Assembly (NCBI GenBank): GCA_046542505.1
Contig: JBKHBH010000018.1
Location: 1 to 29,781, forward strand
Direction: 5' to 3'
Source of the DNA: Thermovirgaceae bacterium
GTDB taxonomy: Bacteria > Synergistota > Synergistia > Synergistales > Thermovirgaceae
DNA length: 29,781 nucleotides
Shown here: positions 13,681-28,448 of the stretch, one piece after another
How positions within the stretch are numbered: position 1 is the stretch's first letter
Layout of the letters: the number at the start of each line of letters is the position of its first letter
Translations under genes and position numbers: made by a program
The notes under the pieces: generated by a model
The model's input: only the letters and a program-made list of their open reading frames with translations
Told to the model about the DNA's origin: nothing
Databases searched by the model: none

Positions 13681-13788
13681 AGGCATGGAAGGAAGAGGTC
13701 CATTTGGATCTCATGGAAGCCGTTTGTCCTTCAGGGAAGTATTCATTGATGCGGGAAGCGTCAGGTTGTAAAAATGGGAGGTTGTCCG

Positions 13789-14373
13789 ATGCGTTGTGAT
13801 CGATGCGAGAAGAAACCCTGCGGCACAGGAGACCCCTGTATCGAAACGGATAGTGACGAACTCTATTCGGACCCCGAAGAGCGGAAGCTGTTTCGTGTTT
13901 CCGCGGAAGTGGAAGCCCTGTATTACGGGGAGATTTGCCGCCTGGAGGAAATCATGGAGTTCTGCCGGCGAATGGAGTATGAAAAAATCGGTCTGGCCTT
14001 TTGCATCGGGCTGGCCGAAGAGGCTCGGGTCGTTGCGGAAATTCTTGAACGGGAGTTCGAAGTGCATTCCGTCTGCTGCAAGGTGGGAGGATTGCCGAAA
14101 GAAAAATTCGACATGCCGGAACGTCCCTGGATCGGTTCAGTAACTTGCAACCCCGCCGAGCAGGCCCGTATTCTCGATGAAGAAGGATGCCAGATGCATG
14201 TGGTTTTGGGCCTGTGCGTAGGACATGACTCACTGTTTTACCGACATGCGAAGGCGCCGGTTACGACCCTGGTAACGAAGGACAGGAAACTGGGACACAA
14301 CCCTGTCGCTGCGGTGTACTGCCCTTATGTACGGGATCATATCGGCGGCAGGCCCGCCGAAAAAATAAAGTAG
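13789..14373 (+). CDS. DUF1847 family Cys-rich putative metal-binding protein
   Basis: CxxCxxxxC N-terminus, RLEEIMEFC, KIGLAFCIGL, SVCCKVG, CNPAEQA, GLCVGHDSLF, TTLVTKDRKLGHNP; ATG13789 after GGGAGG. Confidence 0.88.
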   Translation: MRCDRCEKKPCGTGDPCIETDSDELYSDPEERKLFRVSAEVEALYYGEICRLEEIMEFCRRMEYEKIGLAFCIGLAEEARVVAEILEREFEVHSVCCKVGGLPKEKFDMPERPWIGSVTCNPAEQARILDEEGCQMHVVLGLCVGHDSLFYRHAKAPVTTLVTKDRKLGHNPVAAVYCPYVRDHIGGRPAEKIK

Positions 14374-22941: not shown

Positions 22942-23835
22942 ATGGGCGGAGTTGAAAAAATCACCGGTTTTGTCCTTTTAGCAACGGGAGTGGCACTGCA
23001 TTTCGCTACATGGCCCTGGATCATGGCTTTTGGAGTCGTCCTGGGAGGAACGGTTTTGCTTATCCTGCCGGGCAAGGTGATGCTCTCGATACTTGTTCTG
23101 CTTTCCGGCGCATGGGTCTGGAGCTTTTTTTCGAAAGGGAGTGTCAGTTGTCTCGTGTGTTTTGCAGCAACCATCGCAATCACGGGTGTCCTGGCGCTCC
23201 GACACCGGCTTCTTGGGGAGTGGAATGAGCTGCTGGGGGAACCGCTGCCCTTTTTGGCGAAAAGGAAACTGTACCGCATGTGCGGGCTCTTTTTCCCGCT
23301 TGTCCTTTTCCCCCTGTGGGGGCTTGGTGCGTACCGGATAACCTTGGGATGTCTGGCGGTGGCCATTTTCCTGGCCGAAATCCTCAGGAAACGAAGCCCT
23401 GTGTTCGACAGAGGGTTCAGTCGGTTTTTTGCCGGGGTGAGCAAGAAAAAGGAGGCTGAACGTGTCTCTGGGACGGCCTGGTATCTGTGGGGAGCGACGA
23501 TTGCTTCATTTTTCCCGGGCCTCGCGGGCCCGGCTGCGCTTGTCATGATGACCCTGGGCGATGCCTGGGCCGTAATGGCAGGCATGCGATGGGGCCGGTA
23601 CCACATTCTCGGTAAGAAGACTGCTCTGGGGACATTCGCCTGTTTCGCCGCAGCTTTTTTTGCGGGTTTTGCCTTCGCGAATTTGAACTCGCATGCGCCG
23701 GTTCCTGTCGTCCTTTACATTGCAGGCGCTTCCGTCTCGGCCGTTTCGGAGCTGATCACGCCCGGCAACTGGGACAACCTTACTGTAGCGCCCGCAACTG
23801 CCTTGACGATCTGGGCCGCCGGGTTGCTTCTTTAG
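22942..23835 (+). CDS. Dolichol/phytol/diacylglycerol kinase-like (SEC59/VTE5/DGK1, CTP-dependent) membrane protein
   Basis: Multi-TM; RKLYRM, E-x-x-RVSGTAWY, LGDAWAVMAGMRWGR...KKTALG, SEL...WDNLTVAP. Start is uncertain (weak RBS). Confidence 0.75.
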   Translation: MGGVEKITGFVLLATGVALHFATWPWIMAFGVVLGGTVLLILPGKVMLSILVLLSGAWVWSFFSKGSVSCLVCFAATIAITGVLALRHRLLGEWNELLGEPLPFLAKRKLYRMCGLFFPLVLFPLWGLGAYRITLGCLAVAIFLAEILRKRSPVFDRGFSRFFAGVSKKKEAERVSGTAWYLWGATIASFFPGLAGPAALVMMTLGDAWAVMAGMRWGRYHILGKKTALGTFACFAAAFFAGFAFANLNSHAPVPVVLYIAGASVSAVSELITPGNWDNLTVAPATALTIWAAGLLL

Positions 23836-26800
23836 TCCGTGTTCCTCTCTGCCTTGAGGTAGCACTGTTCCCTGAAAGCGGCGATCTCCGCATCGAGGTT
23901 CGGATTGGGTGAATCCCCGAAAAATGCGTGAATGAGCGGAACGAGAAGGGAAGGGTCCTTCTTCCGTTGTTCTTTCAGAAGAGCCCGTATTTTCGCCGTG
24001 GAGACGCTTTCCTGCATGCAGGTAAAGGGGCCCACGTGAAAGATTCCGCAGATTCCGTCTCTGCCGGAATTCAGGCTTCCCCTGAGGTACTCGTTGAAAA
24101 GCCCTATGGCAAGGGCGGATTCGCCCATGACATCGCCGTGATAGATGCCGTCTTCTTCCGCCTGTTGGATGATCCTTCGGGGCAGGGGGATCACGTGGCG
24201 GTCCCCGAGCTCCTTCTCGAGTATTTTCATGAATTTTCTTTCGGTCCAGTCCATGTAGAAATCGGCCGCCTTGTAGCTGATGTGCCTCGTGTTTCGCCAT
24301 GCGAGATAGGTGACGTAGCGTAGCCACTCATGAACCGGGCCGCGTATGAGTTCAAGGCCCTGTCTTTCGAGTTTCCGGATGACCTGCCCGGTGTACGGGT
24401 CGTGTTGTCGCATGTAGATTTCTCCGATGTAGAGGACGAGGGGAAACCGCTTTACTCCGGAATCCGATAACCCCTTGAAGATCCCGATACTTTCTTTCAA
24501 CCAGGGAGAAATATTCCTGAATGATGCGCCTTTATTCTCCAGGTTCTCCATGAGACTGCCACGGCTGCGGATTGCGGCTTCGTTGAATTCATCCGTGTTA
24601 CTGGCGTAGGGCCTGTAGCGGAGCAGCAGATCGTCAAAAATGTCCGCCGTGAAAATGGCGTTGTAAAGGTCTGAAACAAGGTCGATCAATTTGGGGGTCG
24701 AAAGGTCTATGGACAGGGTTTCCATGTCGAGATACCCTTTCGCGGCGTGGGGCGAGATAATGGGTATTCCGCCAAGCCCCTGCTCTTCAAGAAAAAGCCT
24801 TAATGCCTCAACGTATTTCCCGAAACGGCATGGACCGCTCGTGGTCGGGAGAAAGACCAGATAGTCCTCCTGCACTTTTTTCGCGCCGATATCTTCGACA
24901 AGCCCCTCGATTGACGAGATGACATCGCCGATGACTCCCTTCAGGGGGAAGCAGGTTTCCATTCTGATCAACCTGTTCGCCGCCTCCCGGGACTCGGGGG
25001 TGTCTGTTGGAAGCACCCTTGTGTCAATGCCATAGTGACGGGCCGCGGCGGCGGCAATCGGGCTGACTTCTCCCATGTAGGGAATGAGCCATCGCCTTTT
25101 GCTTCCCTCGATTTTCTTTTGGACCGGAAGGAACGAAAAACGAGAAAGGGGAATGTCGCCGGCGCTTTTGTGCCTTTTTACGACACGCTGGTGCGCTTCG
25201 GCCCGCGTGACGAAGGGGGCGTTGTTTGTCTGGGCATCAGTCATAAGATGCAGGAATGGCTTGTCGGCGCGGCGGAAAATTTCCTGTTCCATGAAGAACT
25301 TGATGGAGTCTGGTCCGCATGCGAAATTCATCAGCCGGACGGGGTAAAGGTCCGGGTGTCTCGCAGTATAGATCGAAGCTTTCAGGATTTCCACGCTGTG
25401 TTCCCAGTACTCGTTGTCCACGAGGTCGTCGATGGGGATGCCTTCAAAACGATGCCGGAGAAATATCTGTGGAATATACCGCATACCCCGGGTCGTGGAA
25501 AACATGTAACCGGAATTTGACGAGGCTTCGGGGTCAAGGAGAACATAGTCACGGCCGGTCCCGACGTATCCTGGTTCGCCTGATCGCTCAAGATCAGAGA
25601 GAAATTTCTCGCCCTCTGCGGCGAGATCCTCCAGAAACGCCCGGGTTTTTTCATCGGCGTCCAGAAAGGCTTTCGTGATTTTATTGACCGGAATGTCGTA
25701 TCCTGCCCTTTTCAAAACACGGTGAAATTCGCGGGCCATCTTGTCACGGTTTCCGAGATGCCAGACGGGGAGCAAAAGACGTGCATCATTAAGTGAAAGG
25801 AGGTCCTTCAGGACAAATCCTTCCGCCTCTGTGTAAATGCAATACATGCGCATTGATCCGTTTGTCGCGGGCGTGTCGATAAAGCTGGGTATGAAAAGAT
25901 GGGAAATCCTGTCGTCCGAAGCCAAGAGAGCTGCATGCCCGGTGGCCAGTTTCATCGCCACGCAGTATTCCGTCGATGCCAGGCGTGTCCCCATGGAGGA
26001 TATGGAAGAATTGGAAACAGGCGAAAGAACGGGAAGAAAACCCAGTAAACTGAAAACCGCCGAAGACCAGACGGCATGCTCCGCGATGGTACAGCCGCAA
26101 CGCCGGATACCAACCGTCGGTCTGTCGGTGTCCAGGCTTTTGCCGAGCCGTTCGTGGGTGATGCCCTGGAAGTGTTTTTCAAGTAATTCGTGGAAACGCT
26201 GTACGTAATCCGGTTGACGGCCGGCGACTCCCTCGCTGTTTCCCCTCGGACAGAAGCCCCCTGAGACGATTTCCTCCTCTCCTATGCGAAAGATCTTCAA
26301 CATGCAGTCCCTTTTGCCGCAGGAAAGTGGGCCGAAATAGCTGGAACAGTGTTGCTCTTCATGAGAAAAGGACAAGTCGGCGATGTTCCAGCCCCTGAAG
26401 GCGCTTTTTGCTTGTCCCCCCCGGTTTCCCAACTCGAACACCCTGTTTCGGACCCAGAGTGCCGCGCCGTAGGCTCCGAAAAGCTCCCTGTAGGGGTAGG
26501 CGTGAATTTCTTTCCCTGTGACCTGGGCCATCGCCGCCAGGAAGGCCTTCCCGAGTGCGGGTCCTCCCTGGCAGGAGCATTTTTCGCCAACGTGCTGTTG
26601 GCCGCCGACGAACTTGTTGAAATAGCTGGCCGCCGTGGAGCGCACGATTGCCGCTGCGATTTCGCATTTGGAGAAGTTTTCGGCAATGAGCCTGTTTTCT
26701 TCCATTTCCATGAAAACACCGCACGTGGCGTCGATAACGGGGACCCTCACTGCTTTCAGAGCTTCTTCCTGCAGGGAGTCTTTCACGTCGAGGCCGATGA

Positions 26801-28289
26801 CCCCGGCCATGTTTTCAAGAGTCTGGCCGGCCCCTGCCTGGCAGGAATAGTTCATCCGGGCTTCCTGGACTTCGTCCGTCGCGTTGCCTGCGGTCCGCTT
26901 GAAAGTGGTGAATTTCATGTCCTGGCCTCCGATTTCGAAGACGGTGTCGATGTCGGCATCCCAGGACTTGATTCCCATGGCGTGACAGGTAATTTCGTCA
27001 ACCGCGGCGTCAGGAACGGAAAATCCGAGGGATTTTAGCCCCTTTCGTCGGGCGGGGCTGACCAAAACCCGCTCGAAGAGTTTCCTGGCGGACCCTGTGG
27101 TGCACACGCCCCTGACGGTATAACAGCCGCTGTTTCGGGCGAAATGGCGCATGATGGCCTGGAGGGCCTTCAAGGGGTTTCCGTGCGTGCTGATATACAT
27201 GCTGTCGAGGATTTCACCAGTGTCCAGATGAACGACAACGGCTTTCGTGGTCGTGGAACCGCCGTCGACTCCCAGGACCACCTCCGGGTCTATCCCCGGG
27301 TTTTCGTTCAATCCTGCAGTGACAGGCTCTTTTTCGTAGATATGGGCTTCAGGCAGCGACGACGCCAGAGACGGTGCGTATTGCCTGTTTTCACGGGCTT
27401 TCAGGGCGACTTCATCAAGCCTTGCCGGGTCCAGAACATGGGAATTTCCCCGTTCCGCCGCAAGAGCGGCGGCCCCGACGGCGCCGACGTTAAGAAAATG
27501 GTCAGGGATTTTTATCGTGGTTTGGGTGAGTTTCCCTATCTGTTTCACTATCGGTGCCATGCGTGTTAACCCGCCCGTCACAGCGATTTCGGAGGCCGAT
27601 TCAAAGCTGCGTGAGCCGATAACGTCCTGGACGAAATTTGAGGCCACGGTACGGAAAAGCTTTGCAAGGATGTGAGGTCTGGGCATCCCCTCGTTCTGGT
27701 CATGGATAAGATCCGACTGGATGACCACGCCGCAGCGGGCGTTGTAGCCGGGAGAGTCGGGGTATTCGGAGGCCTCTCTTGCGGCGGCGGAGAAAAACTC
27801 TTCAGGCAATCCGCTGGAACCTGAATCGGAATCGGTGCAAAAAAGCCGGCGGATCTGTTTTTCCACAAGGGTCCCCGATCCGCCGCCGCATTTGGTGTTC
27901 GTGCCCCATTCAAGAATGAAACGCTTGCCCTTTCTCTCGGCGATATTGAAGTAATAGGAGTCCTTGGCCCCGAGATGAAAAGCCGTATCAGCCCAAGGTG
28001 CCACGAGGAACAGGCCTTTCGCCAGGGTGACGCTGTCGTATTCGTAGAGGGCCCCGTCGAAAACGGAGGGAAAAAGGTCTGCTCCGATGCCCGTGAAGGC
28101 AGTGCTCCGGAGATTTGAAAGGGGTATTGCCTTCGTGAGCTTCGGCCAGATGACGGTTTTCAGGACGTCAAGGGGCTGCCCGCAGTGGGGTTCCGGCCGG
28201 GGGGAGTAGAGGATATTGAAATCCTTGTCGATGACGGAACAGTGTATCGCGGAAGAACCGATATCGAAACCCGCATAAAGCTCAACCAC
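23832..28289 (-). CDS. Four-domain CoA-activase/reductase-dehydratase protein (2 x BadF/BadG/BcrA/BcrD ATPase + 2 x DUF2229-like), PlsA/PlsR-Ger-like, ~1485 aa
   Basis: GFDIGSS...NTKCGGGSG...RCGV; GVDGGSTTTK...EIGGQDMK...MNYSCQAGAG...TCGVF; Cys linker; EYCVAMKLATGH...FACGPDS; ETCFPLK...GPCRFGKY...PFTCM. GTG28289 follows AGGAG. Confidence 0.85.
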   Translation of the reverse strand: MVELYAGFDIGSSAIHCSVIDKDFNILYSPRPEPHCGQPLDVLKTVIWPKLTKAIPLSNLRSTAFTGIGADLFPSVFDGALYEYDSVTLAKGLFLVAPWADTAFHLGAKDSYYFNIAERKGKRFILEWGTNTKCGGGSGTLVEKQIRRLFCTDSDSGSSGLPEEFFSAAAREASEYPDSPGYNARCGVVIQSDLIHDQNEGMPRPHILAKLFRTVASNFVQDVIGSRSFESASEIAVTGGLTRMAPIVKQIGKLTQTTIKIPDHFLNVGAVGAAALAAERGNSHVLDPARLDEVALKARENRQYAPSLASSLPEAHIYEKEPVTAGLNENPGIDPEVVLGVDGGSTTTKAVVVHLDTGEILDSMYISTHGNPLKALQAIMRHFARNSGCYTVRGVCTTGSARKLFERVLVSPARRKGLKSLGFSVPDAAVDEITCHAMGIKSWDADIDTVFEIGGQDMKFTTFKRTAGNATDEVQEARMNYSCQAGAGQTLENMAGVIGLDVKDSLQEEALKAVRVPVIDATCGVFMEMEENRLIAENFSKCEIAAAIVRSTAASYFNKFVGGQQHVGEKCSCQGGPALGKAFLAAMAQVTGKEIHAYPYRELFGAYGAALWVRNRVFELGNRGGQAKSAFRGWNIADLSFSHEEQHCSSYFGPLSCGKRDCMLKIFRIGEEEIVSGGFCPRGNSEGVAGRQPDYVQRFHELLEKHFQGITHERLGKSLDTDRPTVGIRRCGCTIAEHAVWSSAVFSLLGFLPVLSPVSNSSISSMGTRLASTEYCVAMKLATGHAALLASDDRISHLFIPSFIDTPATNGSMRMYCIYTEAEGFVLKDLLSLNDARLLLPVWHLGNRDKMAREFHRVLKRAGYDIPVNKITKAFLDADEKTRAFLEDLAAEGEKFLSDLERSGEPGYVGTGRDYVLLDPEASSNSGYMFSTTRGMRYIPQIFLRHRFEGIPIDDLVDNEYWEHSVEILKASIYTARHPDLYPVRLMNFACGPDSIKFFMEQEIFRRADKPFLHLMTDAQTNNAPFVTRAEAHQRVVKRHKSAGDIPLSRFSFLPVQKKIEGSKRRWLIPYMGEVSPIAAAAARHYGIDTRVLPTDTPESREAANRLIRMETCFPLKGVIGDVISSIEGLVEDIGAKKVQEDYLVFLPTTSGPCRFGKYVEALRLFLEEQGLGGIPIISPHAAKGYLDMETLSIDLSTPKLIDLVSDLYNAIFTADIFDDLLLRYRPYASNTDEFNEAAIRSRGSLMENLENKGASFRNISPWLKESIGIFKGLSDSGVKRFPLVLYIGEIYMRQHDPYTGQVIRKLERQGLELIRGPVHEWLRYVTYLAWRNTRHISYKAADFYMDWTERKFMKILEKELGDRHVIPLPRRIIQQAEEDGIYHGDVMGESALAIGLFNEYLRGSLNSGRDGICGIFHVGPFTCMQESVSTAKIRALLKEQRKKDPSLLVPLIHAFFGDSPNPNLDAEIAAFREQCYLKAERNTD

Positions 28290-28448
28290 GAAACCATCTC
28301 CTGTCAAAAATTTCCGTGCATTTCCTATTATAAACATTCTTGACGGTTTTGAAGGCACTGAAAGGTCGCTGTGGAAGGCTTATGTTACGATATTCCGGAA
28401 GACACCATGGACATGATGTCCGACACAATCCAAAGAGGAGGTGGCCGG

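Follow-up and report, generated by a model that had tools for sequence, protein, structure and literature searches.

A divergent single-chain PlsA/Ger-type protein from a Thermovirgaceae bacterium, a putative ester-to-ether lipid reductase on a deep separate branch of its family

The window analysed here, the whole 29,781-nucleotide stretch of contig JBKHBH010000018.1 (assembly GCA_046542505.1) from a Thermovirgaceae bacterium of the Synergistota, encodes on its reverse strand a 1485-residue protein of the PlsA/Ger superfamily. This protein is probably, at a rough probability of 0.6 and as judged from its sequence, an ATP-driven iron-sulfur (Fe-S) reductase turning membrane glycerolipid esters into ethers, with the alkyl ether favoured. 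It has the architecture and all the cofactor ligands of the family, is a full-length homologue of Ger from Thermotoga maritima and is the sole family member in its genome, which also encodes a homologue of Mss, the synthase of membrane-spanning lipids. It belongs to a clade which in three trees is set apart from Ger and from PlsA-type proteins and which carries its own motifs around several of the conserved cysteines.

The mechanical open reading frame covers positions 23832..28358 of the reverse strand and would give 1508 residues from a GTG codon. The protein on record (P0002, 100% identical) has 1485 residues and corresponds to 23832..28289, and the N-termini of the relatives begin at the same position as the GTG at 28289. 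The reading frame is not a chance one, since 4.5 kb are open and hundreds of homologues match at E = 0, and in base composition it does not differ from the remainder of the window. Residue numbers below (C157 to C1447 and position 1043) follow the 1508-residue numbering. The source genome, a member of the Synergistota, comprises 2.14 Mb in 142 contigs and is 93.5% complete. The gene and the parts of its product are as follows.

23832..28289, reverse strand: coding sequence of the 1485-residue PlsA/Ger-family protein, with stop codon 23832-23834 and GTG start 28289-28287, set by the record length and the relatives' starts.
28298..28302, reverse strand: Shine-Dalgarno-like AGGAG, 8 nucleotides 5′ of the GTG at 28289, read directly from the sequence.
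27324..28289, reverse strand: Act1, first HgdC-like ASKHA ATPase domain, with C157 and C209; PF01869, aligning with 4EHT (E 4e-5) and 1HUX.
26424..27296, reverse strand: Act2, second HgdC-like ATPase domain, with C506 and C546 and canonical DGGSTTTK and EIGGQDMK motifs; matches 1HUX (E 4.5e-19).
26229..26381, reverse strand: cysteine-rich linker with C671, C680, C685 and C703, invariant in 26/26 rows of the relatives' alignment and in 86/87 main-family rows.
25182..26129, reverse strand: Red1, DUF2229 reductase/dehydratase-like domain, with C799 (TEYCVAMK), C840 (YCIYTE) and C1014 (NFACGPDS); PF09989, E 2.1e-31.
23847..25109, reverse strand: Red2, second reductase-like domain, with C1136 (ETCFPLK), C1177 (GPCRFGKY) and C1447 (PFTCMQE); colinear with T. 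maritima Ger and a repeat of Red1.

An earlier sequence-only reading of the window had placed the gene at 23832..28289, which is exact given the record protein, the AGGAG-preceded GTG and the relatives' starts, and had described two ASKHA activase domains with two cysteines each, a cysteine-rich linker and two reductase/dehydratase-like domains with three cysteines each, all of which were recovered. The Pfam models PF01869 (BcrAD_BadFG, two stretches, E 1.8e-33) and PF09989 (DUF2229, E 2.1e-31, residues 748-959) were matched, and the domain order is Act1, Act2, four-cysteine linker, Red1 and Red2, with 14 cysteines distributed as 2+2, 4 and 3+3. C506 and C546 of Act2 align to residues 127 and 166 of the 1HUX chain, which we take to be the [4Fe-4S] ligands of HgdC, and C157 and C209 of Act1 occupy the same columns. 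Motifs present are NTKC (C157), RCGV (C209), NYSC (C506), TCGV (C546), YCVAMK (C799) and CQAGAG, and every quoted part of the linker motif was found, HCSSY..SCGKRDC..GGFCPRG holding C671, C680, C685 and C703. The phosphate-2 motif of Act1 is altered, reading FHLGAKD in place of E/D-x-GG-x-D, and the phosphate-1 Asp is kept. Red2 has no Pfam match, and no PF06050 (HGD-D) match was found in the reductase half at E ≤ 1; Red2 is recognised as an internal repeat of Red1 (hhalign probability 85%, E 6.5e-6, 76 columns, TEYCVAMK over METCFPLK) and aligns with its counterpart in T. maritima Ger along its entire length. All 14 cysteines are kept in 17/17 rows of the window clade, 3/3 rows of its sister clade and 86-87 of the 87 other family rows, the exception among the latter being a copy on a Paraclostridium plasmid. 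This copy, a 1282-residue family member on Paraclostridium bifermentans plasmid pHD0315_2-2 (L118:2644-6492), lacks the four-cysteine linker and the three Red2 cysteines, and may be degenerate or functionally different.

Homologous ATPase domains with the cluster cysteines in the same columns occur in the activators of 2-hydroxyacyl-CoA dehydratases (HgdC, 1HUX; HadI, 4EHT) and in class I benzoyl-CoA reductase (MbdQ/MbdP, 9GAI). The activator of the window protein is a fused tandem, whereas that of the HgdC type is homodimeric, and the catalytic half lacks the PF06050 match of HgdAB-type systems. The reductase half gave no significant match to any solved chain in sequence and profile searches of the PDB; the best match of the Red1 profile was a 'Dehydratase family protein' chain at E 0.42, which is not significant. 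Act2 is matched by the activase chain 7YYL_E (E 1.7e-14). The PDB titles of 6ENO and 7YYL are 'Dehydratase family protein' and 'Putative CoA-substrate-specific enzyme activase', and we take these entries to be the double-cubane cluster protein and its reductase. As a speculation, the six cysteines of the catalytic half would fit a six-cysteine, double-cubane type of cluster site. Among the NCBIfam models only the 'acyl-CoA dehydratase activase' domain model came near, slightly below its cut-off, and the benzoyl-CoA reductase equivalogs (BcrABCD/BzdNOPQ) all scored far below theirs, with 45.1, 44 and 25.4 bits where the respective cut-offs are 578, 312.85 and 380.2.

According to the available text of PMC13159169, anaerobic E. 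coli expressing Tmari_0479 of T. maritima or SHJ90043 of D. alkenivorans forms 1-O-alkylglycerols, the enzyme was named Ger, and two PF01869 stretches followed by PF09989 ('BBD') are the architecture kept in all alkyl-ether producers; homologues of Ger are there defined by E ≤ 1e-50 and a query coverage of at least 30%. The window protein is 26% identical to T. maritima Ger over 1397 aligned columns (E 2e-95, about 94% of its length), which lies within these published limits. With a BBD-type architecture followed by a further reductase-like region, homology to Ger and the 14 cysteines, it falls into the PlsA/Ger superfamily, the family in which the sequence-only reading had placed it. Ger of T. 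maritima has the same domain order from Act1 to Red2 and the same 14 cysteines, and is likewise encoded by a stand-alone gene in a genome that also has Mss. The window protein is however about 70 residues longer, and the deepest split of the family tree separates the two. In Red1 its C-V-A-M-K and C-I-Y-T-E correspond to C-F-P-V-E and C-P-F-V-Q of Ger, Q1043 replaces a His of Ger, and the Act2 motif is CQAGAG against CSAGTG.

The phylogenetic position was determined in three unrooted trees in which T. maritima Ger was represented by P0183 (AGL49404.1, Tmari_0479), identified by exact look-up and also heading Table S21, and the PlsA type by two annotated homologues from the plasmid collection, those of Listeria monocytogenes and Collinsella aerofaciens, neither of which is an assayed protein; the rows include neither Ger of D. 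alkenivorans nor any assayed PlsA. The window clade received a support of 100 in all three trees, and together with a sister ('mid') clade it was split from all other rows, again with a support of 100. The separating branch had a length of 0.85 in the first tree (104 rows, FastTree, without the Listeria and Collinsella rows), 0.74 in the second (48 rows, IQ-TREE, LG+G4) and 1.28 in the third (37 rows, IQ-TREE, LG+C20 with posterior mean site frequencies, PMSF). On the far side of the split are T. maritima Ger and other Thermotogota proteins and, in the 48- and 37-row trees, the PlsA-type proteins of Listeria and Collinsella. The window branch itself is held by Synergistota, Petrotoga, Acetomicrobium and Planctomycetota. 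The suspicion of the sequence-only reading that the protein might represent a divergent, uncharacterised clade is supported by all three trees. The sister clade consists of proteins of 1454-1587 residues from Desulfatiferula olefinivorans, Desulfoluna spp., a Desulfobacteraceae metagenome-assembled genome, Woesearchaeota, Nanoarchaeota and Spirochaetales, is the nearest outgroup with 31-35% identity in the reductase half, and has the same Pfam content as the window protein, namely two PF01869 and PF09989 only. Full-length proteins of Woesearchaeota and Nanoarchaeota, which are DPANN archaea (P0393, P0395, P0405, P0411 and P0437), nest with those of Desulfobacterota in this clade; archaeal homologues are already reported in the available text of PMC13159169.

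The two sides of the split differ in motifs next to the conserved ligands. Around the first Red1 cysteine the window clade reads TE[FY]C[IV]A[MR]K and the main body of the family e.CfPvK, around the second kyCiYTE against CPyvq, and around the cluster cysteine of Act2 NYSCQAGaGQ against MN.vCaAGTGs (CSAGCGS in Listeria, CSSGCGS in Collinsella). Position 1043 is Gln in the window clade and His in at least 90% of the main-body rows. Accordingly the main-family motifs CxPxK and CPxx of Red1 and the C-S-[AS]-G-C-G of Act2 seen in the Listeria and Collinsella proteins are absent from the window protein, which has C-V-A-M-K, C-I-Y-T-E and C-Q-A-G-A-G instead. Two such contrasts, of CxPxK with YCVAMK and of CSSGCG with CQAGAG, had been pointed out in the sequence-only reading and are both seen in the alignment. 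The sister clade retains CxPxK, CPyv and the His at position 1043, and the Red1 and position-1043 states of the window clade are therefore derived. The altered phosphate-2 motif of Act1 (FH-GAKD) is common to both clades, as is KCGGGSG.

The closest proteins are 76-85% identical to the window protein, followed by 'Thermovirgaceae bacterium' proteins at 56-57%, proteins of Petrotoga, Defluviitoga, Acetomicrobium and Synergistales at 51-53%, and many of Sedimentisphaerales, Phycisphaerae and other Planctomycetota, including Anaerobaca lacustris, at 46-48%. A scan of species genomes with two narrow peptide patterns, which returned close relatives only, gave the same picture and added a complete genome titled 'Bacterium M3-1' at 77% as well as single Chloroflexi, Cloacimonadota, Lentisphaerae, Clostridia and Thermoplasmata records. 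When the full library of 1.84 billion proteins was searched with the reductase half, 1460 representatives were obtained at E ≤ 1e-3, three at 44-47% identity, four at 30-35% and the bulk at 25-30%, and the nearest relatives were other fused PlsA/Ger-type proteins. Homologues of PlsA were also seen in 'plasmid' records of 0.3-2.9 Mb (Listeria NZ_LR134399.1 [L117], Acetoanaerobium, Fusobacterium vincentii and Collinsella) which resemble chromosome pieces.

When its own genome was searched with the protein itself, with T. maritima Ger and with PF01869, the gene was the sole match each time, and neither a PF06050 match nor a separate dehydratase partner was found in this 93.5%-complete assembly; the ATPase domains thus have no other client there. 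The window type is also the only full-length family member in 4/5 other window-clade genomes. In the sample of the phylum Synergistota (251 genomes) 105 had a family match at E ≤ 1e-30. The window type is carried by 34 of them, in six families as read from the table, and the other 71 have 23-32% matches only, mostly to main-type proteins of about 1410-1460 residues from one family. Two genomes (G338 and G182) hold both the window type and a main-type copy. Among 151 Thermotogota genomes, 95 matched the Petrotoga protein at E ≤ 1e-20: eight have the window type (at least 74% identity to the Petrotoga protein), about 60 have a T. maritima-type protein of about 1400 residues at 24-31%, and the remainder match only single ATPases of about 350 residues. 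None of the eight window-type genomes has the T. maritima type. The Petrotoga protein (P0031) is 69% identical to that of Acetomicrobium (P0025), and the Petrotoga and Defluviitoga proteins nest with Acetomicrobium in the tree. As these proteins are far closer to one another than their phyla are, the gene has moved between phyla, and for the Petrotoga-like Thermotogota the sequences point to a transferred gene, the T. maritima-type gene having been lost or never present in them.

Homologues of Mss were sought with the verified membrane-spanning lipid synthase of T. maritima (P0475, AGL49750.1, Tmari_0825) as reference. The source genome encodes a homologue, a radical SAM/SPASM protein of 500 residues with 41% identity to T. 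maritima Mss (E 5.8e-111), located at G000:C2:12202-13515 (L125:1402-2904) between the genes for SecF and a LapA-domain protein. At E ≤ 1e-50, Mss homologues were found in 84/251 of the sampled Synergistota genomes, being present in 31/34 with the window type, 17/71 with other family matches and 36/146 without a family match, or in 31/34 against 53/217 when all remaining genomes are counted together from the tables. All five Petrotoga-like genomes tested have Mss, at 70-71% identity, as do 3/4 further window-clade genomes from outside the phylum sample, two of these with stop codons inside the match. Mss and the gene are seldom adjacent, since a match within 6 kb was seen at 1/92 loci only, that of 'Bacterium M3-1' (L004:2604-3941), where the Mss-like gene is a second copy, two genes upstream of the Ger-like gene.

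ATP-driven electron injection into a cysteine-ligated Fe-S catalytic module is the logic common to HgdC-type systems and PlsA/Ger. By analogy with both, the window protein should work as follows. The two fused HgdC-like ATPase domains would form a pseudo-dimer holding one [4Fe-4S] cluster on C157/C209 and C506/C546; ATP hydrolysis would lower the potential of this cluster and push single electrons onward, on a route that may pass through the four-cysteine linker site, to clusters bound by Red1 and Red2 with three cysteines each. These clusters would reduce and dehydrate the ester carbonyl, giving an alk-1-enyl ether by the PlsA mechanism that PMC8788747 summarises or, on further reduction, a saturated alkyl ether as by Ger. 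The saturated alkyl ether is the favoured prediction over the vinyl ether, and the enzyme is most likely self-contained and oxygen-sensitive. That the organism makes ether lipids is what we infer from this, helped by the Mss homologue in its genome.

Counted in favour of a reductase forming lipid ethers were the BBD architecture, the colinearity with Ger, the 14 cysteines, the fused relatives, the position as sole member in the genome, the lack of the T. maritima type in the eight window-type Thermotogota genomes, Mss and a lipid-kinase-like neighbour (below). A number of points weigh against it. Identity to any verified enzyme is only about 25%, no characterised member was found in the window clade or in the sister clade, and in the unrooted trees the window clade lies outside the clade that Ger of T. 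maritima spans with the rows from Listeria and Collinsella. The changed residues beside the Red1 ligands and the exchange of His1043 for Gln mean that the chemistry could differ. With Ger2 of D. alkenivorans, which is homologous over its full length, E. coli formed no ether lipids (PMC11150832), so homology alone is no guarantee of activity, and according to the available text of PMC13274423 and PMC11868695 sequence does not distinguish Ger from PlsA. No recurrent lipid-synthesis gene was found around clade members (30 loci, 110 open reading frames). Mss is missing in three window-type Synergistota genomes and in 1/4 tested outside the phylum sample, and the Mss counts are not independent events, since the genomes are kin, coming from six related families of one phylum. 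A literature search on ether lipids or dimethyl acetals in Synergistota, Thermovirga, Petrotoga and the Planctomycetota holders returned nothing usable, and the same was the case for ether lipids of Desulfatiferula. The position of Ger from D. alkenivorans (1458 residues, 159 kDa, 25.9% similar to Ger2; PMC11150832) bears on the balance. It could belong to the sister clade, its relatives carrying sister-clade proteins, which would give more confidence in a Ger function for the window clade; its published domain string 'BBDHDHDH' argues weakly for the main body instead, as HGD-D matches are absent in 4/4 sister-clade proteins.

An alternative that is unlikely but has to be weighed is that the same reductase machine acts on another substrate or gives another product, for instance at another ester position (sn-2), on membrane-spanning tetraesters only, on another lipid class or on a non-lipid carbonyl, as a third class of the family. 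The deep and strongly supported split from all verified members placed in the trees would suit this, as would the clade-specific changes beside the Red1 ligands with His to Gln at position 1043, and the altered phosphate-2 motif of Act1 that the sister clade shares. The two genomes G338 and G182, in carrying both types, argue against simple redundancy, and DUF2229 proteins are also present in organisms not known to us as ether-lipid makers, for example Thermus thermophilus, one of the control genomes. Against this reading, none of the cofactor ligands is lost, the domains keep their complete order, and no neighbourhood indicates a non-lipid pathway. With the gene as sole full-length member in its own genome, in 4/5 others and in 8/8 Petrotoga-like ones, replacement fits better than a new function.

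Still less expected is a strict plasmalogen synthase like PlsA, stopping at the alk-1-enyl (vinyl) ether, in an organism that would make plasmalogens and not saturated alkyl ethers. PlsA/PlsR is encoded by two genes in Clostridium perfringens (Q8XL48, Q8XL47). The single-chain PlsA enzymes of three species, E. faecalis (Q835P9), L. cremoris and B. longum, are verified plasmalogen synthases according to the available text of PMC12838417, and plasmalogens and plsA orthologues are mentioned for Listeria in that of PMC9702350. The window gene encodes a single polypeptide as does PlsA of these facultative anaerobes, and the product shares the superfamily, the four-domain order and the cysteine ligands with the PlsA-type proteins of Listeria and Collinsella; the inseparability of the two activities by sequence noted above also speaks for such a product. 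Identity to the Listeria protein is on the other hand just 24.6% (tblastn, E 7e-55), with the deepest split of the family between the two, and the window protein lacks the CSSGCG/CSAGCG and CxPAK motifs of Listeria and Collinsella. Indirect evidence against a strict plasmalogen synthase is that the lineages with the clade are rich in thermophiles, that in Petrotoga-like genomes it takes the place of the Ger type, and that it travels with Mss as does T. maritima Ger. A resemblance to the PlsA side is seen in the surroundings, the Planctomycetota gene often having a small MarR regulator upstream and the Collinsella PlsA-type gene, similarly, a TetR.

A more specific scenario, which we put forward as doubtful, is that the window clade became fixed early as a third functional class and spread by transfer between anaerobes such as Synergistota, Petrotogaceae and Planctomycetota, its Red1 changes suiting either a partnership with Mss, by which tetraesters would become tetraethers, or a product other than those of PlsA and Ger. 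The change of Pro to Ala after the first Red1 ligand and of His1043 to Gln would then adapt the enzyme to membrane-spanning diacid lipids.

Finally, that the protein merely serves as activase of a separate 2-hydroxyacyl-CoA dehydratase or benzoyl-CoA reductase is highly improbable. This role is suggested by labels in databases, among them 'acyl-CoA dehydratase activase-related protein' and 'CoA activase', the latter foreseen in the sequence-only reading as the likely pipeline label, and among solved structures the best matches are to activators, those of the 2-hydroxyglutaryl-CoA and 2-hydroxyisocaproyl-CoA dehydratases; but the ATPase domains account for no more than ~640 N-terminal residues out of 1485, and a conserved six-cysteine double domain makes up the remainder, benzoyl-CoA reductase equivalogs score 25-45 bits against cut-offs of 313-578, and no CoA-ester pathway genes are nearby. 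With no PF06050 partner and no other PF01869 in the 93.5%-complete genome this candidate was rejected.

The convergent neighbour of the gene is the following.

22942..23835, forward strand: 297-residue polytopic membrane protein, its stop overlapping the stop of the large gene by 4 bases.

No Pfam or NCBIfam match was found for this protein. Its Atlas features (0.90-0.92) and its structure, with a TM value of 0.87 to a cluster of the 'diacylglycerol/polyprenol kinase family', resemble those of CTP-dependent diacylglycerol/polyprenol kinases (SEC59/DGK1/VTE5), and it may have no functional tie to the PlsA/Ger-like gene. The pair is kept at seven related places (8 loci, L004 and L083 being the same place), those with labels being Thermovirga, Thermovirgaceae and Synergistaceae records and 'Bacterium M3-1', and is absent in more distant relatives. 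An M17 aminopeptidase gene lies upstream in divergent orientation, and the order continuing with nitroreductase, Usp and ABC-F genes is conserved in the closest relatives and not beyond. Recurring neighbours among the 30 loci were a MarR gene upstream (4), a 4HBT thioesterase downstream (5), a zinc-dependent alcohol dehydrogenase (2), an old yellow enzyme flavoprotein (2) and a MacB/FtsX permease (3). In Planctomycetota the MarR gene is often directly upstream on the same strand (L033, L035, L078, L081) and the 4HBT gene downstream (L030, L033, L044, L055, L058). Elsewhere in the window a DUF1847 protein (E 3.4e-55) is encoded at 13774-14373 on the forward strand, between carbon-nitrogen hydrolase and class-V aminotransferase genes.

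'Ger homologs' have already been reported in Synergistetes and in the Planctomycetes-Verrucomicrobia-Chlamydiae (PVC) group in the available text of PMC13159169, and the published trees of that study (Data S1 and S2) may already show the window branch. The present analysis adds the limits of the branch, a derived signature at its active site, its exclusive presence in Petrotoga-like Thermotogota and an association with Mss. Surveys score every homologue of T. maritima Ger as 'Ger', and a large share of such matches in Synergistota, Petrotoga-like Thermotogota and Planctomycetota belongs to a separate deep branch with its own motif signature, which within one phylum, among the genomes searched, tracks Mss more closely than the main type does. 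The 'activase' labels in annotation would miss the likely function predicted here. Ether-bonded and membrane-spanning lipids of bacteria make the 'lipid divide' that separates them from archaea less sharp and underlie the temperature and pH proxies based on branched glycerol dialkyl glycerol tetraethers (brGDGT), of which the anaerobic producers and enzymes are only partly known, as set out in the available text of PMC13159169, PMC11868695 and PMC13274423. If the window clade did turn tetraesters into tetraethers together with Mss, it would provide, for anoxic habitats, the ether-forming step that is missing on the way to brGDGT-like lipids.

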